Source of the DNA: a bacterium
Lineage (GTDB): Bacteria; Patescibacteriota; Minisyncoccia; Phycocordibacterales; VMGT01
Direction of reading: 5' to 3'
NCBI GenBank assembly: GCA_030697645.1
Contig: JAUYPI010000004.1
Location: forward strand, 1,141 to 65,140
Length of the DNA: 64,000 nucleotides
Shown: positions 3,763-64,000 of the stretch, in pieces
How the letters are laid out: the number at the start of each line of letters is the position of its first letter
How positions within the stretch are numbered: position 1 is the first letter of the stretch
Program-made: the position numbers and the translations under genes
The notes under the pieces: model-generated
What the model saw: only the letters and a program-made list of their open reading frames with translations
The model's database searches: none
What the model was told of the DNA's origin: nothing

Positions 3763-4126
3763 GTTTGGCGCTATGCCGTCATAATAACAATGCGGCCGCA
3801 TTGTTATTATGACGATGAGTTTTGCGGCGAGTGAGGGTGCTAAGGCCCCATCCATAAATAAGTTCCTCTAATTCGTGCTGAATAGCATGGCCTGATGCAG
3901 CTTGGCGCGGAATGAGCGAATCCAAGCCGTATCGAGATACGGTGAGGATTTCGCGATTGAGCACGAGCCGCATAAGGGCGTGCAGTGAGTGCGAGATGGG
4001 GAAATTATTTATGGATGGGGGCCTAAGTTGGCAGTTGTTGCGGTTCGTAGTTGCCGTGGGAGTAGTGGCGATTTTCTTTTGCAGTTGTGTCTGCGTTTTT
4101 ATTTGGTATGATGGTGGCACTGGAGT

Positions 4127-4678
4127 ATGTCGTACGATTTCAAAGAACTTAAAGATAGTCTTCGCGAGGCGGAGGAGTGGCTGGTGCGCGAGTTTGGGGG
4201 GATACGCACGGGGCGGGCGGCGCCGGCGCTGCTTGACTCGGTGATTGTCGAGGCCTATGGTGCAAAAATGTCGCTTCGCGACCTTGCGAGCACGACCACC
4301 GAGGACGCACGGACGCTCTGCGTTGCGCCGTATGATGTTTCTACCGTGAGAGCGATCGAGCGTGCTATTAGAGCAGCAAACCTTGGCGTCTCGGTGATCG
4401 CGGACGAGCGCGGCGTGCGCGTTGCGTTTCCGGAGCTCACCGCGGAGCGCCGCACGCTCCTCATGAAACTCTCGCGCGGGAAGCTTGAGGAGGCGCGCAT
4501 TCGTTCTCGCAGTGCGCGCGACAGCGCCTGGAGCGACATACAGAAGCGGGAGCGAGACGGCGAGATGGGCGAGGACGATAAGTTCCGCGCGAAGGAGGAG
4601 ATGGAGAAGCTGGTGCAAGAGGGCAACCGCGCGCTGGAGGCGTGTTTCGGGAAGAAGGAGAGGGAAATCGGCACGTGA
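4127..4678 (+). CDS. frr: ribosome recycling factor
   Basis: 183 aa; full-length similarity to RRF (VEAYGAKMSLRDLASTTTEDARTL..., C-terminal KEEMEKLVQEGNRALE). Confidence 0.9.
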   Translation: MSYDFKELKDSLREAEEWLVREFGGIRTGRAAPALLDSVIVEAYGAKMSLRDLASTTTEDARTLCVAPYDVSTVRAIERAIRAANLGVSVIADERGVRVAFPELTAERRTLLMKLSRGKLEEARIRSRSARDSAWSDIQKRERDGEMGEDDKFRAKEEMEKLVQEGNRALEACFGKKEREIGT

Positions 4679-4734: not shown

Positions 4735-4868
4735 CAAAAATTTACAATTTTCAATTTTGCAATTTTCAAATAATTTTCAATGTGTCAATGACTCAATGAC
4801 GACGACGTCGTTCGTGTTTGAAAATTGCTTCATTGAAAAATTGATTGAAAATTGAAAATTTTGTTGGC
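4735..4868. repeat. modular palindromic element: (CAATTTT)n - core caatgacgacgacgtcgttcgtgtttg - (AAAATTG)n
   Basis: 7-mer tandem arrays in inverted orientation around an AAACACGACG-type core; sits immediately upstream of rseP. Confidence 0.6.
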
Positions 4869-7186: not shown

Positions 7187-7235
7187 TTCCTCGTCCCACT
7201 CTCCACTTTCTACCCTCCACTCTCTATCGTACCAA

Positions 7236-7414
7236 TAGACCTCTTGCATAACCCGCTCCTGCTACAATTTCTGATTTTTGGCTGCGACTTCGTCGAGTTT
7301 CGCAAAATGATTCTCGTCGTACAACAAGTACGCCGTCGAATCATTTTGCTCACTCTCCTCGTCTCGCTCAAAAATTAGAAATCTCGCGACGAAGCGGGTT
7401 ATGCAAGAAGTCTA
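7236..7414. repeat. ~180-bp TIR-bounded palindromic element (family TAGACCTCTTGCATAACCCG...CGGGTTATGCAAGAGGTCTA), copy 1
   Basis: One of 6 near-identical copies; internal nested inverted repeats (gcaaaatggttc/gaaccattttgc etc.); ends at the nucleotide before the ATG of the 7415 gene. Confidence 0.85.
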
Positions 7415-7723
7415 ATGAAATCCTACCCGATCAAAAACGAACTCGACTTTCTTATCGCGCGCGCAGAGAGCGAGCGTTCGGAGATGCAGACGCTGCTCGA
7501 TACTTCTCGCCGCGATGGCGATTATTGGAGAGAGAAGGCTACAGCGAAGCTCGCGACGTTTCTCGGCCTTGAGGTGCAATTTCTCTCGCGCCTTGCCGAG
7601 CTCGAGAGCGATTATCCCGAACTGGCCGCCGCCATCGAGGAGCGTAAGCGCTACCTCGCGGCTCTCGTAAGCGAGGCGCGGGCGATGTACGCCGCCTGGC
7701 AGGGTGCCGCGGAACAGACATGA
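7415..7723 (+). CDS. hypothetical protein
   Basis: 102-aa charged/helical ORF; ATG abuts the repeat element; 4-nt overlap with the downstream gene. Confidence 0.45.
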   Translation: MKSYPIKNELDFLIARAESERSEMQTLLDTSRRDGDYWREKATAKLATFLGLEVQFLSRLAELESDYPELAAAIEERKRYLAALVSEARAMYAAWQGAAEQT

Positions 7724-19943: not shown

Positions 19944-20103
19944 AAATTTCCAAATTCCAAAAAACAAGCTCCAAACAAATCACAATACTCAAAATCCAAT
20001 CTCCAAACACGACGTGCGTGTTTGAGATTTGGTGCATTGGAATTTGAAATTTGTTTGGAACTTGTTGGTTGGAAATTGGAGCTTATTTGGAACTTGGAAA
20101 TTC
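19944..20103. repeat. modular palindromic element (ttccaaa/tttggaa arrays around ccaaacacgacgtgcgtgtttgag)
   Basis: Large inverted structure ending 5 nt before the start codon of the next gene. Confidence 0.6.
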
Positions 20104-24049: not shown

Positions 24050-24131
24050 TGGGCAAGGAGGGAGTCGAACCCTCAACCCTTGCGGGACAGCGTCCTAAGC
24101 GCTGCGCGTATGCCATTTCCGCCACTTGCCC
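24050..24131 (-). tRNA. tRNA-Leu (anticodon UAG) with long variable arm
   Basis: Manual fold: acceptor GGGCAAG/CTTGCCC, anticodon stem CAGCG/CGCTG with loop CTTAGGA, variable hairpin CCCGCAAGGG, T-arm GAGGGTTCGACTCCCTC. Confidence 0.7.
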
Positions 24132-24466: not shown

Positions 24467-24538
24467 GCCCCCGTAGTTCAATGGATAGAACTGGCCCGTC
24501 CTAAGGGCTCGATGTGGGTTCGATTCCTGCCGGGGGCA
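24467..24538 (+). tRNA. tRNA-Arg (anticodon CCU)
   Basis: Manual fold: acceptor GCCCCCG/CGGGGGC, D-arm GTTC/GAAC, anticodon stem GGCCC/GGGCT with loop GTCCTAA, T-loop TTCGATT. Confidence 0.75.
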
Positions 24539-24666
24539 TACAAGCGAAGCGAATATGCACCCGGCAGGAATCGAACGCGGCGTGTCTGCCTGCCCCTGCT
24601 TGACGGCAGGCAGGGGCACGGAACCCTGCTGGCCTGATTGTCTCATTCGAGCGACTTTGCTACACT

Positions 24667-24930
24667 TTGCTCATGGACCCAAATGACCGGCAGTTGCTCA
24701 AGCACGTCGCTCTGCTTGTCGAAGAGAACACGGTGATTCTCCGCAAGCTCCTCCGGGCTGAGAAGATGCGCCGTCTCGTCTCCGCGCTCTACTGGCTCGC
24801 GGTGCTTGCGATTTCGCTTGGCGCTTACTACTTCATCCAACCATACCTCGACAAGCTGCTTTCGATCTACGGAAACGTCCGCGGCGGCGTCGAGAACGTA
24901 GGAGGCACGATTCTCAAGGGCGGCGGGTGA
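24667..24930 (+). CDS. hypothetical small membrane protein
   Basis: 87 aa, one TM helix, Gly-rich C-terminus. Confidence 0.3.
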   Translation: MLMDPNDRQLLKHVALLVEENTVILRKLLRAEKMRRLVSALYWLAVLAISLGAYYFIQPYLDKLLSIYGNVRGGVENVGGTILKGGG

Positions 24931-25685
24931 GGTTATCCACAGGTTGCGTGCTAAAATTGAACTCTCTGTGCTATGCTATATGCATGCGGTCAGATCAAGA
25001 ACGCGCACGTAAGATGCGTATCGGCGGTTACAGTTATCAAGAAATTCACCAGACTCTTGGAGTCCCAAAGTCGACCCTTTCGTCTTGGTTTTCTGGGCTG
25101 CTACTCTCACGGTCAGCACAAAGAAGGATAAATCAGAGAGTGAATCAAGGGCTTGTAAATGGATTAGTGAGACGCAATAAACTTCAGACGCATTTGGCGC
25201 GACGGCGAGCGAGAGAAACCCGCGAGCTTTCTGCGGGTGAGGTGGGCAAACTTTCAGAGCGCGAGTTGCTGCTCATAGGAGTTGCATTATATTGGGCAGA
25301 GGGTTATAAGAAATCTGTTATCAAAAATGGTAAAGAGCGTACATTCCATGCGATTAGTTTTACTAACACAGACCCGGCGATGGTTCGGCTCTTTGTTCGT
25401 TTTTTGACGGAAATTATCCATCTGCCTCAATCAAAAATACGTTTCCACGTGCGACTGTTCCCACATATCAATGAGGATGACGCATTACGATACTGGCTGG
25501 AAGCGTCCGGACTCCCAGAAGAGAGCGCCCTTAAACCTACGGTTGTCACTAGCGTGTCGAGTCTTCGGAAGCGACCCTTTAATCGGTTGCCTTACGGTGT
25601 TGTTCAGATTAGGGCATGCGATACCAAAAATTTTTATCGGATTATGGGATGGATCGACGGAATAAAACAGTTCGTTACAGTTTAA
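24927..25685 (+). CDS. HTH-domain protein with weak LAGLIDADG-like segments (candidate free-standing homing-endonuclease-like gene)
   Basis: N-terminal HTH (GYSYQEIHQTLGVPKSTLSSWF); LLLIGVALYWAEGYK and ISFTNTD weakly resemble LAGLIDADG blocks; ends 8 nt before the intron-containing tRNA; start uncertain (24927 or 24984). Confidence 0.4.
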   Translation: MRLSTGCVLKLNSLCYAICMRSDQERARKMRIGGYSYQEIHQTLGVPKSTLSSWFSGLLLSRSAQRRINQRVNQGLVNGLVRRNKLQTHLARRRARETRELSAGEVGKLSERELLLIGVALYWAEGYKKSVIKNGKERTFHAISFTNTDPAMVRLFVRFLTEIIHLPQSKIRFHVRLFPHINEDDALRYWLEASGLPEESALKPTVVTSVSSLRKRPFNRLPYGVVQIRACDTKNFYRIMGWIDGIKQFVTV

Positions 25686-25692
25686 TACTAAT

Positions 25693-26055
25693 GCCGCGGT
25701 AGCTCAGTGGTAGAGCGCTTGCCTGAAATCTTCGGGCCGTTTCGCAGTAATGCGGAAATGAAAATCGGGCGAAATGCTGGAAACCCTAACGTCGCAGTCG
25801 AGGGCAATCAGCACCCCGCCGTAAAGTCCCATAAGGAAACTTTACGGCAAGGTCAGAGACTATCCTTTTTTGGAGTACTGGATGTATGACGTCACGGGCG
25901 AATCTTAGGAAGTTCGTCGTTACGATATATCTCGGAAGCACCCGATCTCCCCTGATCAGCAATGGCGGGGAGAGTGATATAGTCCAATCCTCAAGGTGAC
26001 TTGAGTTCCATTTTGGAAGAGCAAGGCGTCGGGTGTTCGATTCACCCCCGCGGCA
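25693..26055 (+). tRNA. tRNA-Phe (anticodon GAA) interrupted by a group I intron in the anticodon loop
   Basis: Exon 1 GCCGCGGTAGCTCAGTGGTAGAGCGCTTGCCT; exon 2 GAAGAGCAAGGCGTCGGGTGTTCGATTCACCCCCGCGGCA; spliced loop CTGAAGA; all stems complementary. Confidence 0.7.
25725..26015 (+). ncRNA. group I self-splicing intron (~291 nt, no ORF)
   Basis: P1 GCCU|GAAAUCUUC-GGGC with the U.G pair at the 5' splice site; R element GGUCAGAGACUAUCC (cf. GUUCAGAGACUACA); S element GAUAUAGUCC exact; ends in G before exon 2. Confidence 0.65.
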
Positions 26056-26060
26056 CACAA

Positions 26061-26239
26061 TAGACCTCTTGCATAACCCGCTCCTGCTGCGATTTTTGAT
26101 TTTTGGCTGCGACTTCGTCAGCCGTCGCAAAATGGTTCTCGCCGTACAACAAGTACGCCGTCGAACCATTTTGCTTGTCTTCCTCGTCTCGCTCAAAAAT
26201 CAAAAATCTCGCCACGAAACGGGTTATGCAAGAGGTCTA
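26061..26239. repeat. ~180-bp TIR-bounded palindromic element, copy 2
   Basis: Starts 5 nt after the tRNA-Phe 3' end; TIRs tagacctcttgcataacccg / cgggttatgcaagaggtcta. Confidence 0.85.
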
Positions 26240-27788: not shown

Positions 27789-27936
27789 GTAACTGCTCAC
27801 GCTGATCACAATACTACGTAACAGAGCCGTCTTTGCGAGGAGCGGAGCGACGAAGCAATCCAGAGCGAGTAACACAAACCTCCTGGATTGCTTCGCTCCT
27901 TTCGGTCGCTCGCAAAGACGGGTGTGAGCAGTGACC
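27789..27936. repeat. nested palindromic element, family GTCTTTGCGAGGAGCG...CTGGATTGCTTCGCTCC (GIY-YIG-associated family)
   Basis: Outer arms gtaactgctcacgc / gtgtgagcagtgac; inner ctttgcgaggagcgg / tcgctcgcaaag; related to 54838, 58443, 61716, 63293 and the arms flanking the GIY-YIG gene. Confidence 0.7.
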
Positions 27937-31261: not shown

Positions 31262-31400
31262 AATTTTCAATTTTCAATTTTCAATTTTCAATCAATGGCC
31301 AATGTTCCAATTTCCAAACACGACGTCGCCGTCCGTCGTTTGAAAATTGCCTCATTGAAAATGTATTGAAAATTGAAAATTGGAAATTGAAAATTCCCGC
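31262..31400. repeat. modular palindromic element ((ttttcaa)n - ccaaacacgacgtcgccgtccgtcgtttg - (ttgaaaa)n)
   Basis: Replaces the expected fusA/tuf position after rpsG. Confidence 0.6.
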
Positions 31401-32011: not shown

Positions 32012-32079
32012 ATTTATCAGCAGTACTTTTTACCGCTCTATAAAATTTATTAGAGATCAGTACATAAACAGGCGTAAGA

Positions 32080-32198
32080 ATTTTCAATTTTCAATCAATG
32101 ACCAATGTTCTAATTTCAAACACGACCACGACGTCCGTCGTTTGAAAATTGTCTCATTGAAAATGTATTGAAAATTGAAAATTGAAAATTGAAAATTT
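32080..32198. repeat. modular palindromic element (copy nearly identical to 31262-31400)
   Basis: ttttcaa arrays + caaacacgaccacgacgtccgtcgtttg core; between rplJ and rplL. Confidence 0.6.
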
Positions 32199-33560: not shown

Positions 33561-33739
33561 TAGACCTCTTCGGAAATTCCTTTCTGCTGCAATTTCTGAT
33601 TTCTGGCTGCGACTTCGGAAAGTATCGCAAAATGATTCTCGTCGTACAACAAGTACGCCGTCGAATCATTTCGCTCACTTTCCTCGTCTCGCTCAAAAAT
33701 CAGAAATTTCGCCACGAAAGGAATTTCCGAAGAGGTCTA
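33561..33739. repeat. ~180-bp TIR-bounded palindromic element, copy 3 (variant TIR tagacctcttcggaaattcc...ggaatttccgaagaggtcta)
   Basis: TIR stem differs from copies 1/2/6 but stays self-complementary (compensatory). Confidence 0.85.
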
Positions 33740-39947: not shown

Positions 39948-40126
39948 TAGACTTCTTCGGAAACCCCTTTCGTGGCGAAATTTTTGATTTTTGAGCGAGA
40001 CGAGGAAAGCGAGCAAAGTGACTCGACGGCGTACTTGTTGTACGATGAGAGTCATTTTGCGAAGCTTGACAAAGTCGCAGCCAAAAATCAAAAATTGCAG
40101 CAGAAGGGAGTTTCCGAAGAAGTCTA
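39948..40126. repeat. ~180-bp TIR-bounded palindromic element, copy 5 (inverted orientation, variant TIR)
   Basis: tagacttcttcggaaacccc...ggagtttccgaagaagtcta; left boundary of the surface-protein island. Confidence 0.85.
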
Positions 40127-54730: not shown

Positions 54731-54837
54731 CGCGAAACTCCTTGTGTGTGAGAGTGAGACATTGGTCCTCTGTCGGGGATCTTCAGTCCGTCGAAAGTAA
54801 AGCACGCAATATTCTCGAGCGCAAGGGTTCGTTGAGT

Positions 54838-55005
54838 AAGTGCTCACACCCCCTCACAAGGCATCGTAACAGAGCCGTCTTTGCGAGGAGCGGAGCGATC
54901 CCACGCTATGCTCTGGACAGGCTCCGCAATCCAGAGCGAGTAACGTAAAACCCCTGGATTGCTTCGCTCCTTTCAGTCGCTCGCAAAGACGAGTGTGAGC
55001 ACTTA
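54838..55005. repeat. nested palindromic element, GIY-YIG-associated family
   Basis: gtcgtaacagagccgtctttgcgaggagcg...ctggattgcttcgctcc...cgcaaagacgagtgtgagcact. Confidence 0.7.
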
Positions 55006-55172
55006 CTTCGTTTGCAGGAAATTTATGCCATTTCGTCACCAATTTAGAGCGATCGCATAAAATTGGTGACGATGAGAAACGGAAAGCGTGCAAAGCGTGC
55101 AGTGGCCCTCGGCGCCGTACCTGTCTCTGATTTGCAAATGCAAATTTTATTCGTGCCTGCTACTATCGGTCT

Positions 55173-58100
55173 ATGGGAGAGCCACGCACATCGGCAGTGT
55201 TTGAAAAGTTCTACCGTGCCCTCAATCCGGAGCAGCGTAGGGCGGTGGAAGCGATTGAGGGCCCGGTGATGGTGGTCGCCGGTCCGGGGACAGGGAAGAC
55301 CCATCTGCTCACGATGCGCATCGCGAACATCCTCCGCCTCACAGACACGCCGCCCGAGAGCATCCTTGCGCTCACCTTTACCGACTCCGCCGCGCACGCA
55401 ATGCGCGAGCGGCTCCTTGAGATCATCGGCACGGCCGCGTACCGTGTCCACATCTCGACTTTCCACGGCTTTTGCAACGATGTTATCCGCCGCTTCCCAG
55501 GCGAGTTCGCGCGCATCGTCGGCAGCACGCCCGCGAGCGAGGCGGACCAGCTGCGGATCATGGAGAATGTTATCGCGGATGAGACCCTCACTCTCGAGCA
55601 TCTTCGGCCCTACGGCAACCCTTTTTACTACGTCCGCGCGGCTCTCAGCGCCATCCACGAGCTGAAGCGTGACAGCGTGAGGCCTGAGGAGGCGCGCGCA
55701 GCGCTCGAACGCGAGGAGCGCACCCTTGCCGAGTCGCCCGATCGTCTCTACGAGAGCGGCCGGTACCAAGGGCTTGTACGTGCGTCTTTCCGCGCTCGGG
55801 AGAAACAGCTTGCGCGGCACCGTGAGCTGCTCTTGCTCTATGAGGGATACGAGCGTTCGCTTCGCGCCGAAGCGCGCTTCGATTACGAAGATATGGTGAT
55901 GGAGGCCGCTCGCGCACTCGAGCGAAGCGAGGACCTCCTGCTTGAGCTTGAGGAGCGCTACCTCTACATCCTCGCCGACGAGCATCAAGACGCGAACCTC
56001 GCCCAGGAGAAGCTCCTCACCTTGCTCTCAAGCTTCCATGAGCGGCCGAACCTCTTTGTCGTCGGTGATGATAAGCAGGCGATCTTCCGCTTCCAGGGGG
56101 CTTCAGCGGCAAACTTCGCCTCCTTTAGTGAGCGCTACCCCGACGCGCTTGTGATTGATCTTCGCGAGAATTACCGCTCACGGCAGCGCATTCTTGACGC
56201 GGCGGCGAGCGCAATCATGCACTCGCCGGAGAGCGTTTTGCGCCCTCGCGCGGCGCTTCGCGCCGCGCGAGGCGAGGGGGAGCCGGTCAAGGTTGCCGTA
56301 CTTGCAAGCCCCGCACATGAGGCGCTCTTTGTCGCGCAGGAGGTACGGAGGCTCCTTACTGCGCTCGTCGCTCCCGAGGAGATTGCCGTTATCTATCGCG
56401 ACAACCGTGACGCGGAGGCGTTTGTCTCGCTCTTTGAGAGGCTCGGCATACCCTACACGAGGTACTCGGATCAAAATGCGCTCACTGATCCGCTGCTGCG
56501 CCAGCTCGTGATGCTCCTCCGCGCCGTGAGTACGCCGCAGAGCGACGAGTATCTTTCGCGCTCACTCTTTCTCGAGTTTTTAGGGATTGATCATCTCGAG
56601 GTCTACGCGCTCTTTGAGCGCTACGAGGCGCTGCGCCGGACGCGGCGCGAGGCCTCTCTCAGACGCTCCGACGAGCGGCTGATCCACCTCCTGCGCCGGA
56701 CGCCGGGCGCAGCGCCGCTCGAGCCGATCTCGACCGACGGCGCACCGCGCAGTCTCACTTCCTTCGCCCAGCTCCTCAATTCTTGGGCATCATTTGCGAA
56801 GAGCCGCGGCCTGCTCGAGACGCTCGAGCTCATCGTGCGCGAGTCTGGCTTTCTTGTCTCACTCCTCGGCTCTCCTGAGGGCTATGAGCGCATCCGGAAG
56901 CTCGAGGGCCTTATAACCGAGCTTGCGCGCGCGGTGCCCGGGCACCGCGGTTACGGCCTCTCTGAGGCGCTCCGGCATCTCGACATACTCGAGCGCTACG
57001 GCGTTTCGCTCCGGAGCGGCGGCGAAGCGAAAGGCCCTCCGGGGGTCGTGCTCCTCACCGCACACAAGGCAAAGGGGCTTGAATTCTCGCACGTATTTAT
57101 CGTGCGCGCCGCAGAGGGACATTGGGGAGGGAGGCGGGTCGTCGAACATTTTCCGCCGATGAGAGCTGTGGCCGCGGAGCGCGGCGCGAGAGCGGCGAGC
57201 GAGAGTAGCGCGGAGAACGAGCTCTGCGATGAGCGGCGGCTCTTTTACGTCGCCCTCACGAGAGCGCGCGAGAGCGTTACCATTACGCACGCGAGAGCGG
57301 GTGATGATGGTCGAGCGCGCCTCCCGTCGCGTTTTCTCGAGGAGATTGACCCGGCACATCTCAGGCGCGTAGACACGGCGCTCCTTGAGGAGTCGCTTGA
57401 GCGGGAGCGGCGAGGGCTTTTTGGCGCGCGAGAGCTCTCGGGCCGTCTTCCGGCGCTCTCGGATAGGGCATTTCTCCGCGAGCGGTTTCGCACGCAGGGG
57501 CTCTCGGTGACGGCGATCAACAACTATCTCGCCTGCCCGTGGCGCTACTTTTTCGAGAATTTGATCCGTGTGCCGAGAGCGCCGAATCGTCATCAGCTCT
57601 ACGGCATCGCGGTTCACAGCGCGCTGCGGGAGATGTTTGACGCGCTCGGGCGGGAGACAAAAATGAGCGAGAAGGAATTCCTCGCGAGCTTCGAGCGCGC
57701 GCTGGCGCGGACTCCGCTCTCGGAGGGGGACTTTGCGGTCTCGAAAGAGAAGGGGAGACGCGCGCTCTCGGGGTACTACCGCGCGTACGAGGCTGTGATG
57801 ACAGCGCCGCTTCGCACCGAGATGCGCATCGGGGGCGTCGCTTTTGAGGGCGCCCAGTCTGATGAAAAAGATGACGCGCCGCCTCGGGTTATGCTCGTCG
57901 GCGTTCTCGACAAGGTAGAGCTTTTCGAGTCCGGATCAAACCGTCTCCTCGTCACGGACTACAAGACCGGAAGGCCCCGGAGCCGCAACGACATCGAAGG
58001 GAAGACGAAGACCTCGCAAGGCGAGTACAAACGCCAGCTTGTCTTCTATAAACTTCTGCTTGACCGCTTTGAGGAGGGGCGCTTTAAGATGCACGCCGGA

Positions 58101-58304
58101 GAGATTGATTTCGTCGAACCGGACGCTCGGGGCCGCTACCATCGCGAGCGGTTTGAAATAAGCGGCGAGGACGTCATGGCTCTTGCGGCGGAAATTGAGC
58201 GTGTCGTCCGCGACATCTGGTCGCTTTCGTTCTGGGAGCGGCGCTGCGAGGAGCGTGGATGTGAATACTGCGCGCTCCGTGAGCTGATGGGAGGAGCTCT
58301 CTGA
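55173..58304 (+). CDS. UvrD/PcrA-type SF1A DNA helicase fused to C-terminal PD-(D/E)XK (RecB/Cas4-like) nuclease with Cys cluster
   Basis: Walker A AGPGTGKT, DExx LADEHQD, helicase motifs through VLLTAHKAKGLEF; C-terminal DYKTG...QLVFYKLL and CEERGCEYC. Confidence 0.8.
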   Translation: MGEPRTSAVFEKFYRALNPEQRRAVEAIEGPVMVVAGPGTGKTHLLTMRIANILRLTDTPPESILALTFTDSAAHAMRERLLEIIGTAAYRVHISTFHGFCNDVIRRFPGEFARIVGSTPASEADQLRIMENVIADETLTLEHLRPYGNPFYYVRAALSAIHELKRDSVRPEEARAALEREERTLAESPDRLYESGRYQGLVRASFRAREKQLARHRELLLLYEGYERSLRAEARFDYEDMVMEAARALERSEDLLLELEERYLYILADEHQDANLAQEKLLTLLSSFHERPNLFVVGDDKQAIFRFQGASAANFASFSERYPDALVIDLRENYRSRQRILDAAASAIMHSPESVLRPRAALRAARGEGEPVKVAVLASPAHEALFVAQEVRRLLTALVAPEEIAVIYRDNRDAEAFVSLFERLGIPYTRYSDQNALTDPLLRQLVMLLRAVSTPQSDEYLSRSLFLEFLGIDHLEVYALFERYEALRRTRREASLRRSDERLIHLLRRTPGAAPLEPISTDGAPRSLTSFAQLLNSWASFAKSRGLLETLELIVRESGFLVSLLGSPEGYERIRKLEGLITELARAVPGHRGYGLSEALRHLDILERYGVSLRSGGEAKGPPGVVLLTAHKAKGLEFSHVFIVRAAEGHWGGRRVVEHFPPMRAVAAERGARAASESSAENELCDERRLFYVALTRARESVTITHARAGDDGRARLPSRFLEEIDPAHLRRVDTALLEESLERERRGLFGARELSGRLPALSDRAFLRERFRTQGLSVTAINNYLACPWRYFFENLIRVPRAPNRHQLYGIAVHSALREMFDALGRETKMSEKEFLASFERALARTPLSEGDFAVSKEKGRRALSGYYRAYEAVMTAPLRTEMRIGGVAFEGAQSDEKDDAPPRVMLVGVLDKVELFESGSNRLLVTDYKTGRPRSRNDIEGKTKTSQGEYKRQLVFYKLLLDRFEEGRFKMHAGEIDFVEPDARGRYHRERFEISGEDVMALAAEIERVVRDIWSLSFWERRCEERGCEYCALRELMGGAL

Positions 58305-58442
58305 GAGACGCCTCCGACGGTATCAGCTCACCGGGCTGAGTAACGGCTCAACGACCGTGTCGATTTTGAGATATTTTGTGATGATATCAAAAAACGAGTA
58401 GACAAGCTGCTCTTTAAATATACTTCCTTTGTGATGGCTCAG

Positions 58443-58815
58443 GTAACCGCTCACACCTACCACAAGACTGTCTAACAGGGCCGTCATTGCGAGGAGCGAA
58501 ACGGAGTGGAGCGATCCCACGCTATGCTCTGGACAGGCTCCGCAATCCAGAATTACGGCTCAGCAACTGGATTGTTTCCTGCCTACCGGCAGGCAGGCGC
58601 TCCGCTCGCAATGACGGGTGTGAGTGATTACGGCTAGAGGTAAGTGCTCACACCCGTCTTTGCGAGCGACTGAAAGGAGCGAAGCAATCCAGGGGTTTTA
58701 CGTTACTCGCTCTGGATTGCGGAGCCTGTCCAGAGCATAGCGTGGGATCGCTCCGCTCCTCGCAAAGACGGCTCTGTTACGAGGCCTTGCGAGGGGTGTG
58801 AGTGATTACGGCTAG
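58443..58815. repeat. two back-to-back inverted copies of the GIY-YIG-associated nested palindromic element
   Basis: Copy A 58443-58640 and copy B (reverse complement) 58625-58815 share gcgatcccacgctatgctctggacaggctccgcaatccag. Confidence 0.7.
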
Positions 58816-58897
58816 AGAGGTAGACATCAAATAAAAATAGTGGTATATATAAACAGGATAAGCGTCGGATAACTCTCTTACAAGAGGAGGAGCAAGG

Positions 58898-59380
58898 ATG
58901 GAACAGCAGAATAGTCGTACAGGGTTTCCGTTTTCATGGTGGGGTGTTATCTGTGGCACAGCGATGGTGGGGATATTTTTTGATTTGCATAAGTATGTCA
59001 CCGGGCCGCCATACAAGGCGTTGATCGCCCCGCTCCTCGGGACGCTCGTGCCACGCGATCCGTTGGTCACGATCGCCTGGCTCGTCATTATCACGCTGCC
59101 TCTCTCTTGGTTTTGGGTACGTGCACTGATGCGGCGGAACTATGAAAACGCATTCTGTTGTACATACTCGTTTGCGGTCACGCTGGTGCCGTGGACGTGG
59201 GGACTTTTGAGCATTCCGGTGAACTTTCTTCTGCCGAGCTCCGCTGGCATAGTGGTCAGCATCCTAGACGCCGTATTGCTCACCGTGTGGTTCGTGGTGA
59301 TTTCAGTTGTCACGGTTGTATCCTCTACGATAATTGAGCGGGTTCGTGTGCGGCTGGGGCATGACGGCTTACCTCAATAG
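58898..59380 (+). CDS. hypothetical membrane protein
   Basis: 160 aa, 4 TM helices. Confidence 0.4.
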   Translation: MEQQNSRTGFPFSWWGVICGTAMVGIFFDLHKYVTGPPYKALIAPLLGTLVPRDPLVTIAWLVIITLPLSWFWVRALMRRNYENAFCCTYSFAVTLVPWTWGLLSIPVNFLLPSSAGIVVSILDAVLLTVWFVVISVVTVVSSTIIERVRVRLGHDGLPQ

Positions 59381-59550
59381 TCGTGCATTGCCACCTTTTT
59401 CCAACAGGTATATATGTGCCGCGCCGAGCAACCTCAGCGCGGTATTTTTGTGCAAGCGGGAGAAGGTTGCGGAAAAAATAATTCCTGGTATATTCCGATA
59501 AGTCTCGGGAAGCTCCTTGATACTCTCTCCCTCCAAAGAAAGGGACGTTT

Positions 59551-60621
59551 ATGGCGGCAGATTTTCTCATGGCGTTGTCGCCCACGTTTTGCAAAAAAAC
59601 AAGGAAAACCGCTCCAAGAAAAATACTCATCGTAGCGCACCTGACAGATCACTATGAGCTCCCAGAAGGCGGGGCTGACAGAGTCGTGGCATCGCTCATG
59701 GAAGAAGGGTATGCGCACCCGCTGCCGTTAAACAGGTCAGCGGTTTATGAAGATCGGGATCATTATCGGACTGCATATCGCTATCTCAATGCCGATTCGG
59801 AGCTCCGAAGCCACATGGATGCCATGCTCTCCCAAGGGAAGGCTCTGGGAGATTATCTGGGTATCCGATCCCTGCTCTATGATCACCCAGAAATTCAAAC
59901 GTGGCAGGATGTGCAGGAGAAACTTTTTGCCCTGCCGGTGTCTCCTGCTCCACCACCAGCTCTGGCTCCGCCCGCCACAGAAGTTTCGGCGGATAAGATT
60001 CTCGCAGAGATTTTCCCTCCGCCGACGAAACTGGATGGCAAACTGGAGGGCATCAGAGCTTCGGTTGAACGCTTCCGTGAAAGTCTCGAGGGGTGGATGC
60101 ATACCCTGCAGACGGAAGCGAGAGAAACACAGGAGCAGATGCGTCACCTGGCACGGGAAAATGCTCTCCTGCGCGCACGGCTTATGGAGTACGCACAGTC
60201 CGGAGACAACGCGCGCGCGGCGGCCGACATCATAGAGAACGCGGTCTCTGATCTGACGAATTTCTTCTCGATTGCCAGTTGTGGCCTTCCTGGCCATACC
60301 AGTATATCGGCTAGTAAAGGCGGCTGGGCCGGAGAGTTTGCCCTCTCCTATGGCGAGGATTTTCAGGATCGATTCTTCGGGGGCTATCTCGCGGTACACG
60401 AGAGAACGCAGGTCGTAAAAGCGCTCAACAACTTTGCTGCGGAAGGACGCTTCTATCCCGGCCTCAACACGAAGAAGTTTGTGCGGCGACTGCCCGGAGT
60501 ACCGATGGGAATTCGCGGGTATCACTATTCGCGTGCAGCGGATGACATACGCTTTACGTGGAAGCAAATCAGTGGCGTGATTTACGTCTTTAACGTCCAC
60601 AAAAAAAATGAACTTGATTGA
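59551..60621 (+). CDS. hypothetical protein with C-terminal RelE/YoeB-toxin-like segment
   Basis: C-terminal YHYSRAADDIRFTWKQISGVIYVFNVHKKNE weakly resembles YoeB/RelE (YSRRI..RLVYRV...HY); rest unassigned. Confidence 0.35.
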   Translation: MAADFLMALSPTFCKKTRKTAPRKILIVAHLTDHYELPEGGADRVVASLMEEGYAHPLPLNRSAVYEDRDHYRTAYRYLNADSELRSHMDAMLSQGKALGDYLGIRSLLYDHPEIQTWQDVQEKLFALPVSPAPPPALAPPATEVSADKILAEIFPPPTKLDGKLEGIRASVERFRESLEGWMHTLQTEARETQEQMRHLARENALLRARLMEYAQSGDNARAAADIIENAVSDLTNFFSIASCGLPGHTSISASKGGWAGEFALSYGEDFQDRFFGGYLAVHERTQVVKALNNFAAEGRFYPGLNTKKFVRRLPGVPMGIRGYHYSRAADDIRFTWKQISGVIYVFNVHKKNELD

Positions 60622-60810
60622 GGGACACAACAGCGCCTCGCCGCTATGCGGCGAGGCGCGTACCAATTACGGACGAAGCCATGATCGCTTGGCTTTTTCT
60701 CTATCATGCTCCCCCTTTACGCATTTTTTGACAAATAATACCGGTTTGTATATAGTCTGGAGGTGGGCAGCTAATGTATTCGATCAGGAAATCCGAAAAA
60801 GGAGGATTCC

Positions 60811-61599
60811 GTGGACCGTTTTTTAAGTTTCCCAATAGTGGTTCTTTTGATACTGATGCCGTTCTCTTCTGTTTGGGCAGAGGGGGACGCACGCCTTCCG
60901 ACGCACGCAGAGCTCGTCGGGGCGCTCGTCGAGGCATGCAAAAAAGGAGTCAACAATGGCGCAATTTTCTCACCAGCCCAGATGTGGGCTGCGATAGTGG
61001 ATCGCTCTGGTCAGGTTGTCGCCGTCGCAAAGACGCCCGGCGCAGATCCCTGGCCCGGCAGTCGGCCGATTGCGATGCAGAAGGCAAACACGGCCAATGC
61101 GTTCAGCAATCGAAACCTGGCTCTCTCCACGGCCAATCTGTACAGCGCGGTGCAACCTGGCGGCAGCCTCTACGGGCTGCAACATAGCAACCCAGTCAAT
61201 GTCGCTATCGCGTATGGAGGGAAGGCAGATAAATACGGCACTACCCAGGATCCTGCGGTGGGGAAGCGTGTTGGTGGCATCAATGTCTTTGGTGGAGGAT
61301 TACCTCTCTACCATCAAAGGACTGGTGAGGTATTGGGCGCAATCGGGGTCAGCGGCGATTCTTCGTGTGCTGACCACGTCATTGCGTGGCGCGTCCGTCA
61401 TACTCTCGGCTTCCGCATGCTTCCGGGCGGTGTCAACAAGACATCGTACGGAGGAGCATCGGCGCCACAGGCCGGTGATGACAACATCATCTATGCAGAG
61501 AGTGGCTTTCGCCACCCTGCCTGCGGTTTTAAGGAAACGAGCGTAAACGATCTGCCTTCAGTACAGAACCTTACCAAGCCCGTTGCGAGCAAGAAGTAA
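60811..61599 (+). CDS. secreted GlcG/DUF336 (heme-binding, PduO-C-like) family protein
   Basis: Signal peptide; hallmark GAIGVSGDSSCADHVIAW (cf. GGIGVSG of GlcG/HbpS). Confidence 0.65.
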   Translation: MDRFLSFPIVVLLILMPFSSVWAEGDARLPTHAELVGALVEACKKGVNNGAIFSPAQMWAAIVDRSGQVVAVAKTPGADPWPGSRPIAMQKANTANAFSNRNLALSTANLYSAVQPGGSLYGLQHSNPVNVAIAYGGKADKYGTTQDPAVGKRVGGINVFGGGLPLYHQRTGEVLGAIGVSGDSSCADHVIAWRVRHTLGFRMLPGGVNKTSYGGASAPQAGDDNIIYAESGFRHPACGFKETSVNDLPSVQNLTKPVASKK

Positions 61600-62005
61600 C
61601 TATCGTTTGCTGCCCACCATGTTTGAGACGGCCGCTACACTACCTGTAGCGGCCGTATTCTGTGTCGCACTACTGGATCACAGGCAAAAGCACTGGCAAG
61701 GAGGCGGGCGGCGTACGTCTTTGCGAGCGGAGCGAAGCAATCCAGGGCGATGACCTACAATTCTCTCGACACGTCTCTCGCTTGGGCGCACACTACGGTG
61801 TTGTTTGACACCTCCCCGATGCTCTCGTCTACTCCGCTATCCACACCCCGCGCACAGTTTTTCCCCTTGACGCTTGAAGCGCAGAAGCTGATGATGTTGA
61901 TATAACGCATTGAATCACCGCGCGCGGCTCCTGCATGTATGTAGAGAGTGGGTTGTCCTGTATTAATAACAGCCGTGCCGTCGTTCATTCGTTTCCCATG
62001 GACGT

Positions 62006-62317
62006 ATGCTATTCAAGAGCACAACTGCACTGCTTGTTACCCTTGCGACTCTGGTTGCACTGCCGCTTATTTCCGCTCTCGAAGCCCACGTGCTCAACGT
62101 CACGGCGCAGATATGGAAATGCGCTCACCGTGCCGGTGAAAAGACAGGAATCCGAACTCGCGTTCTCGCAGGAGGGACGCGAGTTGTCGTTTTCAGTTGC
62201 GCGCTCGGGCTCTTTCCTCTGGTGGTATATAAAAAAACTCCAGCCGTTTTGACGCGGCTGGAGTTTTTTTATGTGCGCTCTGGCTTCGGTGCCTTAGGGT
62301 CGAACATTATTCGTTAA
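62006..62317 (+). CDS. truncated paralog (possibly pseudogene) sharing the N-terminal signal/anchor module of the next gene
   Basis: LISALEAHVLNVTAQI vs AFSAFEAHIINVTARIEN in the 62349 protein; a bidirectional terminator hairpin lies inside this ORF. Confidence 0.3.
   Translation: MLFKSTTALLVTLATLVALPLISALEAHVLNVTAQIWKCAHRAGEKTGIRTRVLAGGTRVVVFSCALGLFPLVVYKKTPAVLTRLEFFYVRSGFGALGSNIIR
62238..62264. terminator. bidirectional intrinsic terminator (A7-ctccagccg ttttgac gcggctggag-T7)
   Basis: Perfect 10-bp stem flanked by A-run and T-run. Confidence 0.5.
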
Positions 62318-62348
62318 TAACGTAAAAAAGAAAAGTCGCTATAAAAAT

Positions 62349-63278
62349 ATGAAGAAATTACTTTTTCGCGCGGCAGTCGGCATTGGCACGCTCGGCGTCA
62401 TTGTCGGCGGCGCAGCGGCATTCAGCGCGTTTGAGGCGCACATCATCAACGTGACGGCGAGGATTGAGAATGCCTTGAGTGTGAATGAAGGTCCGATTGA
62501 GTTCGGCACCGTGTTCCCGCAGGAACTTCTTGTCCACGACTTGCACGTAGTGATGTCTGACTCTTTCGACGGGGAAAATCGAGTTGATGACATTAACTAT
62601 GTGATCAAGCAAAAGCCGAAGGTGAAACGCTGCATTGAAACTCGAGGTGACCTCGACCCTGTGACCACGATCCTGCGTTGCCGGCAAGAGCTCGATGCGA
62701 CGCGCAAGCCAATTGACCCGAACGACGCGCCGGAGCCAGGCGATCCGCACGCAATGATTCATCCCACAGGCCACGATGCGGGCATTGTTGCCTGGAAGTA
62801 TTGCGAGGAAAACTTACCACTAGACGCGCCGTATGGTGCGAGCGTAGATCCAACTCACGAGTATTGGAGATATTGCTATTTGCCACTCGCAAATTATCTC
62901 TCCAAGCACGAAAGGACCGTCGATGGTACGCCAGATAACGATCCGAAACCGAATGTTCCCGCTTTCCACCAGGCGTATACATGGGATACAGGCAGCCCTG
63001 AGCTCGATCCTGCCTACATCGCCAAGGGCCGATTGGCTAAAAGCCAGAACGACAAAGCTGATCTGTGGAACATTGATTTGCGAGTTCCGTGTTTTGTTAA
63101 TCAGTGCGACCAGGATGCGGACAATCCACTCAACGATGACACCGACGAGTTCCCCGGTTTCTATGTTCCATTCGAATTCAGACTCCCGAGTCACCTTGAA
63201 CACAAGGTCTTTGGAACTGATCTGTGGGTAGAAGTGACCGAGATCAGTCGGTCAGCGGTAGCGGGGGGGGGGTCATAA
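62349..63278 (+). CDS. secreted hypothetical protein with SipW-cognate-like signal region
   Basis: Signal peptide followed by AFSAFEAHIINVTARIEN (cf. A(Y)FSDTE of TasA/camelysin-type signals); Asp/Pro-rich. Confidence 0.5.
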   Translation: MKKLLFRAAVGIGTLGVIVGGAAAFSAFEAHIINVTARIENALSVNEGPIEFGTVFPQELLVHDLHVVMSDSFDGENRVDDINYVIKQKPKVKRCIETRGDLDPVTTILRCRQELDATRKPIDPNDAPEPGDPHAMIHPTGHDAGIVAWKYCEENLPLDAPYGASVDPTHEYWRYCYLPLANYLSKHERTVDGTPDNDPKPNVPAFHQAYTWDTGSPELDPAYIAKGRLAKSQNDKADLWNIDLRVPCFVNQCDQDADNPLNDDTDEFPGFYVPFEFRLPSHLEHKVFGTDLWVEVTEISRSAVAGGGS

Positions 63279-63292
63279 TACTCGCCCGATAG

Positions 63293-63477
63293 GCGTTAAG
63301 TAACCGCTCACGCCTATCACCACACTGCTTAACAGAGCCGTCATTGCGAGGAGCGGAACGGAGGGAGCGATCCCACGCTATGCTCTGCTCTGGACAGGCT
63401 CCGCAATCCAGAATTATGCGCAAAAACTGGATTGCTTCGCTCCGCTCGCAATGACGAGCGTGAGCGCTTACGCCGTT
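63293..63477. repeat. nested palindromic element, GIY-YIG-associated family
   Basis: gtaaccgctcacgcc...gtcattgcgaggagcgg...gcaatccag...ctggattgcttcgctccgctcgcaatgac...gcgtgagcgcttac. Confidence 0.7.
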
Positions 63478-63663
63478 AATCCTTCACGAATCCGGCCTCT
63501 CTTTTTTGAGGGGCTGGGAGGTGAGGGATTGAGAGGAAATGTCTGTGAATGACGAAATTGCCGACGGAGACAGCCGAGTCGTACATTCGAAGCACGAAAT
63601 ACGAAACTAAACTTTGGCAAATTTCGTCATTGCGAGCGAAGCGAAGCAATCCAGGGGAATGTT

Positions 63664-63954
63664 CTACAATTCGTTCGACAAGTCTCGCCACGTCGGATTC
63701 ATCGCCTCGACAAGCGCAAGCTTCTTCTTCCGAGAACCACCTTTGATCTGTTTCTCACGGGATATGGCAGCATACATTGTCTCATGCACTTCGTAATATA
63801 CGAGAGTATGTACATGGTATTTTTTTGTAAATCCGTCCACTGCTTCCGACCGATGTTCCTGCAACCGTCTTTGCAGATGCGATGTTACCCCAGTGTACAA
63901 CGTGCCGTTTCGTCGGCTCGCAAGGATGTACACACATGGGATCATTCCTGACAT
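63664..63954 (-). CDS. GIY-YIG nuclease family protein (UPF0213/YhbQ-like), embedded between inverted arms of the nested-palindrome family
   Basis: CVYILASRRNGTLYTGVTSHLQRRLQEHRSE GIY-YIG motif; arm fragment gtcattgcgagcgaagcgaagcaatccagggg at 63626-63656 and its reverse complement ccctggattgcttcgctccgctcgcaa at 63974-64000. Confidence 0.7.
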   Translation of the reverse strand: MSGMIPCVYILASRRNGTLYTGVTSHLQRRLQEHRSEAVDGFTKKYHVHTLVYYEVHETMYAAISREKQIKGGSRKKKLALVEAMNPTWRDLSNEL

Positions 63955-64000
63955 ACGGTGATTATATACTAAACCCTGGATTGCTTCGCTCCGCTCGCAA

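Follow-up and report, generated by a model that had tools for sequence, protein, structure and literature searches.

What links a small nuclease gene to the palindromes that flank it, and to similar palindromes without genes elsewhere in the same DNA? This question is raised by a stretch of 64,000 nucleotides (nt) of a bacterial contig, JAUYPI010000004.1 of assembly GCA_030697645.1 (hereafter the window), at the right end of which a gene for a 96-amino-acid (aa) GIY-YIG protein lies between two inverted arms. The initial annotation of the window regarded the gene-less palindromes either as miniature derivatives of a mobile element carrying this gene or as hairpin substrates of the nuclease, and knew of no named family with such an organisation. 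A named family exists, the Ssn nucleases with their recognition repeats, the 'Ssn-related motifs' (SRM) (PMC11893778), and the same repeats had been listed before as 'CGTC-tagged' repetitive extragenic palindromes (REPs) (PMC3733652). We consider it highly probable that the 96-aa gene encodes an Ssn-family (SsnA-like) nuclease, that the flanking arms are its cognate recognition hairpins and that five gene-less elements are MITEs (miniature inverted-repeat transposable elements) of the IS66 type.

The gene and its arms are located as follows.
63626-63656, plus strand: SRM-type arm 3' of the gene, GTCATTGCGAGCGAAGCGAAGCAATCCAGGGG on the plus strand, with its GTC tag facing away from the gene.
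63664-63954, minus strand: ssnA-like gene, an open reading frame (ORF) of 96 aa, or of 93 aa if the start is Met4.
63974-64000, minus strand: SRM-type arm 5' of the gene, truncated by the window end; full form gtctttgcgagcggagcgaagcaatccaggg, read from contig L001.

The position of the gene between inverted arms, as first annotated, was confirmed by the ORF, by its GIY-YIG match and by the arms themselves, which are 96% complementary over 27 nt (63630-63656 and 63974-64000). The downstream arm (63626-63656, gtcattgcgagcgaagcgaagcaatccagggg) begins 11 nt past the stop codon. The right arm is indeed cut by the window edge, and extension recovered it. A database protein (P0001, NCBI 'GIY-YIG nuclease family protein', 93 aa) is 100% identical to the 93-aa form of the window protein and led us to contig L001 (assembly GCA_034376905.1), which is identical to the window at 100% over 574 nt and provides the missing part of the upstream arm. 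In L001, 19 nt separate the full arm from the ATG, and a distance of 23 nt upstream of the gene was also measured there. The exact 96-aa form had no database record in a look-up of the full sequence.

The sole Pfam match of the 96-aa protein is GIY-YIG (PF01541, E 6.7e-16, residues 7-78), with no extra DNA-binding domain. Residues Y9, Y20, R30, H34, E67 and N86 are invariant in an alignment of 35 sequences, and Y9, Y20 and E67 correspond to Y6, Y17 and E64 of the 93-aa form. Searches of NCBIfam and PADLOC gave no match, NCBIfam having no model for the protein, and the only PHROGs match was marginal (E 9e-4). The family search proposed in the initial annotation thus returned GIY-YIG, while the similarity to UPF0213 is marginal: the best solved relative, BH0048 (PDB 1zg2), reached only E 0.0012.

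The GIY-YIG protein SsnA of Neisseria meningitidis consists of a single domain and 94 aa (CDD cd10448; Chenal et al. 2025, Nat Commun 16:2388, PMC11893778). It binds the hairpin repeat NTS (CGTCATTCCCGCGMAVGCGGGAATCYRG) as single-stranded DNA (ssDNA) only and in one orientation only, cuts a few nucleotides upstream of the repeat and acts neither on double-stranded DNA (dsDNA) nor on RNA. Its mutants Y6A, Y17A and E64A keep binding and lose cleavage. The most critical NTS positions are the 3 nt before the palindrome for cleavage and the C right after it for binding. The typical gene order is NTS-ssnA-NTS; SRM were found near 71% of bacterial homologues, on both sides in 42%. In Neisseria, SsnA reduces transformation and recombination by NTS-bearing DNA, and its authors leave the role elsewhere open (PMC11893778).

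The locus of the window resembles this system in encoding a GIY-YIG protein of one domain and about 94 aa, whose catalytic Tyr, Tyr and Glu occupy the same positions, in the inverted (C)GTC-tagged, CCAG-ending hairpins on both sides of the gene, in the dispersed intergenic copies and in paralog-specific arm types. The window arms share with NTS and SRM the (C)GTC tag, an AT-initial stem, the C right after the palindrome and the CCAG tail, which conforms to the SRM tail CYRG. They differ in arm type, in the probable Patescibacteria host and in having dispersed copies inside MITEs. The suggestion that the short copies are hairpin substrates of the nuclease is supported by the apparent homology to SsnA in size, domain, catalytic residues and arm features.

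Window arms are built as GTC-WTTGCGAG...GAAGCAAT-CCAG. The arm core GTCATTGCGAG is present 14 times in the window with at most 1 mismatch, against 1.9 expected, a number that 0 of 100 shuffles reached. A structured scan returned 11 bona fide arms, which with one degenerate arm and the one cut by the window end make 13 in 64 kb, all intergenic. GTC, the C after ...GCAAT and CCAG are kept in 13/13 arms. The fourth base is A in 5 and T in 8 of them, the T weakening the first stem pair. This arm type, ATTGC-GA-GCGNAGC-GAA-GCAAT, has a stem of 5 Watson-Crick base pairs (bp) around a purine-rich core, and in every arm pair of the window the tags point outward.

The association of arms and gene extends far beyond the window. 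Homologues of the protein number thousands, the closest named ones being from metagenome-assembled genomes (MAGs) of Patescibacteria and Paceibacterota, and when each species was represented by one genome, a scan of genome contigs yielded more than 592 relatives. The best 80 (52-67% identity) come from Alpha- and Gammaproteobacteria, Cyanobacteria, Chloroflexi, Planctomycetes, Bacteroidota, Nitrospirae and Patescibacteria. In most related loci GTCATTGCGAG...GAAGCAATCCAG precedes the gene and its complement follows it, often 5-25 nt from the start and stop codons. As judged by a fixed pattern, an arm was present within 150 nt on both sides of 43/85 genes (compared with the 42% of PMC11893778), on one side of 22/85 and on neither side of 20/85, several of the latter failing merely the strict CC tail. 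Correctly oriented arms were concentrated in the first 200 nt (65 upstream, 62 downstream), with only about 10 per 200-nt bin farther off.

One could ask whether the likeness of the arms is fortuitous, or the repeat mis-assembled, since an arm is cut by the window end and likewise by the ends of related contigs. The excess of core matches over expectation speaks against this, as do the 100% identity of an independent assembly and the presence of the same arms beside homologous genes in dozens of independent genomes, with arm-flanked genes on complete chromosomes among them. We regard the chance of such an artefact as negligible.

Variation among the arms was further examined with the pattern GTC + 5-mer + loop + perfectly complementary 5-mer + CC. 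The stems between GTC and CC were ATTGC (214), ATCGC (13), ATCCC (8), ATTCC (6) and ATGGC (5); since the scan demanded complementarity, these counts list the stems in use and are no independent test of pairing. The stem variants change at matching positions on both strands of the hairpin, in a compensatory manner. Of 359 tagged hairpins in 639 kb, 214 are of the type most common around the closest homologues, ATTGCGAG...GAAGCAAT. C precedes GTC in 225/348 arms and T in 100/348. In the commonest 25-nt arm all positions are fixed except the N of GCG-N-AGC (C 34, A 26, T 17, G 10). We take this centre to fit the 'GNA' mini-hairpin of DNA, a pattern that points to a DNA rather than an RNA structure.

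This bears on a second explanation, in which arms and palindromes act in RNA, as terminators or as mRNA stabilisers in the classical role of REPs, and the nuclease gene is a mere neighbour. All elements are intergenic, several lie just 3' of genes, whole elements fold very stably (z -9), and many REPs are transcribed (Di Nocera et al., PMC3733652). However, no intrinsic-terminator-like site (a stem followed by a T-run) was called around the gene. No Rfam family matched the arms, either at the gathering threshold in the window and 16 related loci or with E up to 5 in 58300-64000. SsnA does not bind RNA (PMC11893778). Moreover, the exact unpaired nucleotides (GTC, C and CCAG) are kept across phyla and the arm type tracks the paralog, neither of which a simple hairpin needs. 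A role in RNA therefore appears very improbable.

The link between arm type and paralog is illustrated by the gammaproteobacterial MAG GWF2_41_13 (L018), which carries two Ssn paralogs 3.4 kb apart (306-560 and 4001-4273). They have separate arm types, GTCATCCCGCTG...CAGCGGGATCCAG and GTCATTGCGAG...GAAGCAATCCAG, one of which is NTS-like and fits the published SRM pattern. L018 is a natural case of enzyme-site specificity pairs. Its copy B is 57.6% identical to the window protein (tblastn E 1.5e-29) and carries SRM-pattern repeats on both sides. When homologues were searched from the NTS-flanked paralog of L018, no Neisseria protein was present among the 120 best listed matches.

The published SRM string, HGTCWYN(0-2)YYVSBRHN(0-5)WNVSBRGN(0-2)RNCYNB, had only 12 matches in 96 related loci, including the arms of the second L018 paralog. 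As judged by its sequence features, the ATTGCGAG...GAAGCAAT arm represents a class of SRM that the published search definition does not cover. Since the string misses the commonest arm type, the published counts of the association between Ssn genes and repeats are probably underestimates.

The CGTC-tagged REPs of Di Nocera, De Gregorio & Rocco (2013, BMC Genomics, PMC3733652) have AT-initial stems and CCA tails and occur mostly as inverted dimers. Their hosts are chiefly Alphaproteobacteria, together with Cyanobacteria and Planctomycetes, and they were described as 'apparently lacking a dedicated transposase'. The window arms share with them the CGTC/TGTC tag, the AT-initial stem, the short CCA-type tail and the organisation in inverted dimers able to fold into larger structures. 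They differ by a shorter canonical stem, whereas CGTC-tagged REPs, among them dRS3 of Neisseria and RPE-4 and RPE-6 of Rickettsia, have stems of 8-9 bp and loops of 4-5 nt. No link to a GIY-YIG gene was drawn in that paper.

What, then, are the gene-less elements? All sites at which they had been placed do carry arms, and their number is six rather than seven: five complete elements (E1-E5) and one solo arm. The arms lie inside nested palindromes as first described, whereas the outermost stem proved to be a separate terminal inverted repeat (TIR) of 14 bp. The boundaries were redefined accordingly and are given below with the target-site duplications (TSDs).
E1, 27789-27935, plus strand: MITE of 147 bp; TIR GTAACTGCTCACGC / GTCACTGCTCACAC; TSD CGTAAACA / CGCAAACA (7/8); arms 27829-27861 (plus) and 27885-27919 (minus).
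E2, 54836-55006, plus strand: MITE of 171 bp; perfect 14-bp TIR GTAAGTGCTCACAC; TSD TTCGTTGA / TTCGTTTG (6/8); arms 54877-54932 (plus) and 54956-54990 (minus).
E3, 58443-58631, plus strand: MITE of 189 bp; TIR GTAACCGCTCACAC / GTAATCACTCACAC; flanks TGGCTCAG on the left and GGCTAGAG on the right; arm 58483-58548 (plus) and degenerate arm at about 58566-58615 (minus).
E4, 58640-58809, minus strand, inverted relative to E1-E3 and E5: MITE of 170 bp; TSD GGCTAGAG (8/8); arms 58656-58690 (plus) and 58714-58769 (minus).
E5, 63300-63471, plus strand: MITE of 172 bp; TIR GTAACCGCTCACGC / GTAAGCGCTCACGC; TSD GGCGTTAA / GCCGTTAA (7/8); arms 63340-63409 (plus) and 63429-63455 (minus).

The TIR, GTAANNGCTCACRC or GTAA(G/C)(T/C)GCTCAC(A/G)C, is present at both ends of 5/5 elements (10 matches against 0.6 expected), and an alignment of the five copies shows conserved sequence also outside the arms. 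At random sites, a match of at least 6/8 between flanks at the same spacing has a chance of 0.6%. The own flanks of E3 agree at only 3/8, its right 8-mer being common to E4. E2 and E4 are 95.9% identical, which suggests recent copying. In a metagenome scan with an element-specific pattern, two further copies were found in other samples. One of them (L100) is bounded by an 8/8 duplication, TTTATATA, has a terminal repeat altered on both sides (GTAACCCCTCAC / GTGAGGGGTTAC) and contains the same inverted arm pair. The window and the fetched loci contained no further copies of the terminal repeat.

Ends of IS66 elements start with GTAAGCG and are accompanied by 8-bp direct repeats (PMC11946415), and ISDge4, of the ISBst12 group, has the end GTAACTGCTCAGCA and an 8-bp repeat (PMC12898284). 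E1-E5 resemble this group of the IS66 family in their GTAA-initial TIR (GTAACTGCTCACGC in E1 compared with GTAACTGCTCAGCA in ISDge4) and in their 8-bp duplications; their length of 147-189 bp without an ORF is MITE-like. Their own TIR and 8-bp duplications together indicate that E1-E5 are IS66-type MITEs whose cargo is a pair of Ssn hairpins in inverted orientation. Most likely, a DDE transposase acting in trans, and not the nuclease, multiplied the hairpin sites in this genome. To our knowledge, an IS66-type MITE with an interior made almost wholly of an Ssn hairpin pair has no earlier description. The idea that the short copies are miniature derivatives of a GIY-YIG element is contradicted for the five complete elements by these signatures, and only the solo arm looks like a decayed gene unit.

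Two observations concern the neighbourhood of the MITEs. E2 lies upstream, and E3 and E4 back to back downstream, of the gene at 55173-58304, which encodes a 1043-aa AddA-like helicase-nuclease with UvrD and PD-(D/E)XK domains. Just before E5, a run of ten G (63263-63272) occupies the 3' end of a 309-aa ORF (62349-63278); it may be slippage-prone or a weak point of the assembly.

Folded as ssDNA, E1 reaches -45 kcal/mol (z -9.1) as a long hairpin in which the arms pair with each other. We also considered a Holliday-like fold, with a four-way junction, as the substrate of an SLX1-like enzyme and rejected it, the minimum-energy fold being a long hairpin and the characterised enzymes acting on simple ssDNA hairpins.

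Several points weigh against the assignment to Ssn nucleases and IS66-type MITEs. The stability found when the initial annotation's folding check was carried out belongs to the whole element; a lone arm folds weakly (-2.7 kcal/mol, z +0.45, standard DNA parameters) and shuffles do as well, and in ssDNA the two arms of one pair would rather pair mutually. The published SRM string has 0 matches in the window or on the isolated arms, while it matches the canonical NTS. The placement among Ssn proteins was made by size, build, catalytic residues and arms, which suggest membership. Neither a full-length IS66-type element with the same ends nor a cognate transposase was found in the 64 kb of the window or among the loci fetched, and no promoter was called near the gene by a simple consensus scan. 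The presumed cellular effect is drawn from the analogy with Neisseria.

The gene-bearing unit behaves differently from E1-E5. In five loci (the window unit, read from L001, and four relatives with Patescibacteria as closest named homologues), homology extends from the outer GTC of the upstream arm to the outer GAC of the downstream arm, with unrelated flanks. The unit is found, for example, with a cluster of secreted-protein genes, with a PrgI/TraC/TraG-like cluster for type IV secretion and beside an IS110 transposase. Arm-gene-arm is a discrete cassette in unrelated genomic contexts. In several loci with the closest relatives of the window protein, Magasanikbacteria or Patescibacteria by name (L082-L087, L094 and L095), the cassette is located directly upstream of a DNA-transfer cluster with PrgI-, TraC- and TraG-like genes, and in L096 a close Ssn homologue adjoins an IS110-family transposase. 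In the window, 155 nt separate E5 from the ssnA cassette.

A related sequence lies about 1.9 kb from the intact cassette.
61717-61777, plus strand: solo SRM arm (61717-61746) followed by about 34 nt like the ssnA 3' end, 51/61 nt identical to 63626-63686.
A minus-strand ORF over the solo arm ends in ...ARDVSREL*, compared with ...WRDLSNEL* in the intact gene. As judged by this nucleotide similarity, the segment looks like the remnant of a second gene-bearing unit. A 77-aa ORF at 61755-61988 was considered as a decayed paralog and dropped, only its last ~34 nt being related, at the DNA level; BLASTP found no protein similarity between it and the nuclease.

Could the nuclease itself mobilise the arm-gene-arm unit, the gene-less palindromes being its non-autonomous miniatures in a REPIN-RAYT-like or homing-like manner? 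The discrete homology block in differing contexts and the decayed copy nearby are in favour of such mobility, and the authors of the Ssn study also remarked on an insertion-sequence-like architecture with the gene between its repeats (PMC11893778). Ssn enzymes cut 5' of their tag and the tags here face outward, so that nicks would be expected at both outer boundaries of the cassette; this coincidence fits nuclease-assisted relocation and is no evidence of it. An alternative junction in L001 lies exactly at an arm, in a 100% identical background: 7839-7917 of L001, compared with 63427-63471 of the window, reads from the E5 MITE end through the arm into the ssnA 5' region, where the window has gene-less E5. 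This junction, in the last 34 nt of L001, may have arisen by tandem duplication or by recombination of one 25-nt arm core with an identical one, may mark an allele that carries the gene, or may be a join made in assembly. On the other hand, E1-E5 have their own IS66-type TIRs and 8-bp duplications, which are absent from the gene unit. The search for target-site duplications urged at the outset thus succeeded at the gene-less elements, whereas neither a duplication nor an empty-site pair was found for the gene unit. Next to arm-gene-arm units, the only direct repeats were of 3 nt, in 2/4 loci, too weak to count. The neighbouring yqeY protein, looked up for presence/absence variants, had no database record, and contigs of the same population in other assemblies run collinear with the window and merely break at repeats. 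Furthermore, no strand-transfer activity is known for SsnA homologues, and they leave dsDNA uncut (PMC11893778). Nuclease-driven mobility is thus possible for the cassette and contradicted for E1-E5 by the MITE signatures, and we consider it unlikely that it accounts for the unit and the palindromes alike.

As in REPIN-RAYT systems (Bertels & Rainey 2011; Nunvar et al. 2010), a single-copy enzyme gene lies between inverted tagged palindromes that are dispersed as inverted doublets. The RAYT enzyme, however, belongs to the HUH Y1 transposases of IS200/IS605 ancestry and its tag is GTAG, whereas here the enzyme would be a GIY-YIG nickase with a (C)GTC tag and no known strand transfer. With GIY-YIG homing endonucleases (I-TevI, Seg, Mob) and with UPF0213/YhbQ the protein has the GIY-YIG catalytic fold in common. 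Unlike homing endonucleases, it lacks a DNA-binding domain and an intron or intein context, its gene lying outside the group I intron of the window (25715-26006), and its expected substrate is ssDNA and not dsDNA.

By analogy with SsnA, the Ssn-like nuclease would bind an arm only in single-stranded DNA and only in forward orientation (5'-GTC, hairpin, CCAG-3'), the expected substrate being ssDNA bearing the arm sequence GTCATTGCGAGCGAAGCGAAGCAATCCAG. It would nick a few nucleotides 5' of the GTC tag. With tags pointing outward, nicks would fall just outside each arm pair, one per strand, and exposed or incoming ssDNA would be fragmented at arm sites. IS66-type MITEs would add a second layer by spreading inverted hairpin pairs. 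Both cleavage of the window arms by the window protein and a cellular role in this organism are inferred from that analogy. We also entertain, as a rather doubtful extension, the idea of the cassette as a self-propagating element, with the ssDNA nickase aiding relocation of itself or of its hairpins, a GIY-YIG analogue of REPIN-RAYT. If this were true, the hairpin pairs would have gained a second route of spread as cargo of IS66-type MITEs, giving two nested layers of mobility in one nuclease-site system.

The window contains further repeats and structured elements.
25715-26006, plus strand: group I catalytic intron (Rfam RF00028, 65 bits, E 2.9e-14, full model).
This intron lies about 1.2 kb from tRNA-Leu (24050-24131, minus strand) and tRNA-Arg(CCT) (24467-24538, plus strand), and the ORFs flanking it (24927-25685, plus; 25786-26196, minus) have no Pfam match. 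An inverted copy of the tRNA-Arg 3' end, 23 nt long and 96% complementary, stands 13 nt beyond it (24518-24576) and may act as a terminator or be left over from integration at the tRNA. A second palindrome family of about 180 nt (33561-33739, 39948-40126, 7233-7417 and 3841-4025) has arms of 24-26 nt, TAGACCTCTTCGGAAATTCCTTTC and variants, spaced by 131-135 nt and 88-100% complementary; unrelated to the Ssn arms, it could represent a MITE or a structured RNA. Intergenic inverted tracts of short repeats of the AATTTTCAAT or GACATTTGAC type are present at 31262-31395, 32079-32183, 4753-4861, 19949-20080 and 1080-1154.

Taken together, these results go modestly beyond the 2025 description of the Ssn system in three respects: the published motif misses this class of arm, the host is probably one of the Patescibacteria, and hairpin pairs are borne by MITEs. 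For annotation, we suggest that the gene be labelled as a putative Ssn-family site-specific ssDNA nuclease, with the palindromes as its probable recognition repeats, in place of 'hypothetical' or 'UvrC-like'. Each new pair of Ssn and arm is a candidate reagent for sequence-specific cutting of ssDNA. Carriage by MITEs would provide one concrete route for expansion of the repeats without the nuclease acting as a transposase. Patescibacteria are ultra-small bacteria thought to depend on the uptake of foreign DNA, and an ssDNA 'restriction' activity of Ssn systems in probable members of this group could matter there.

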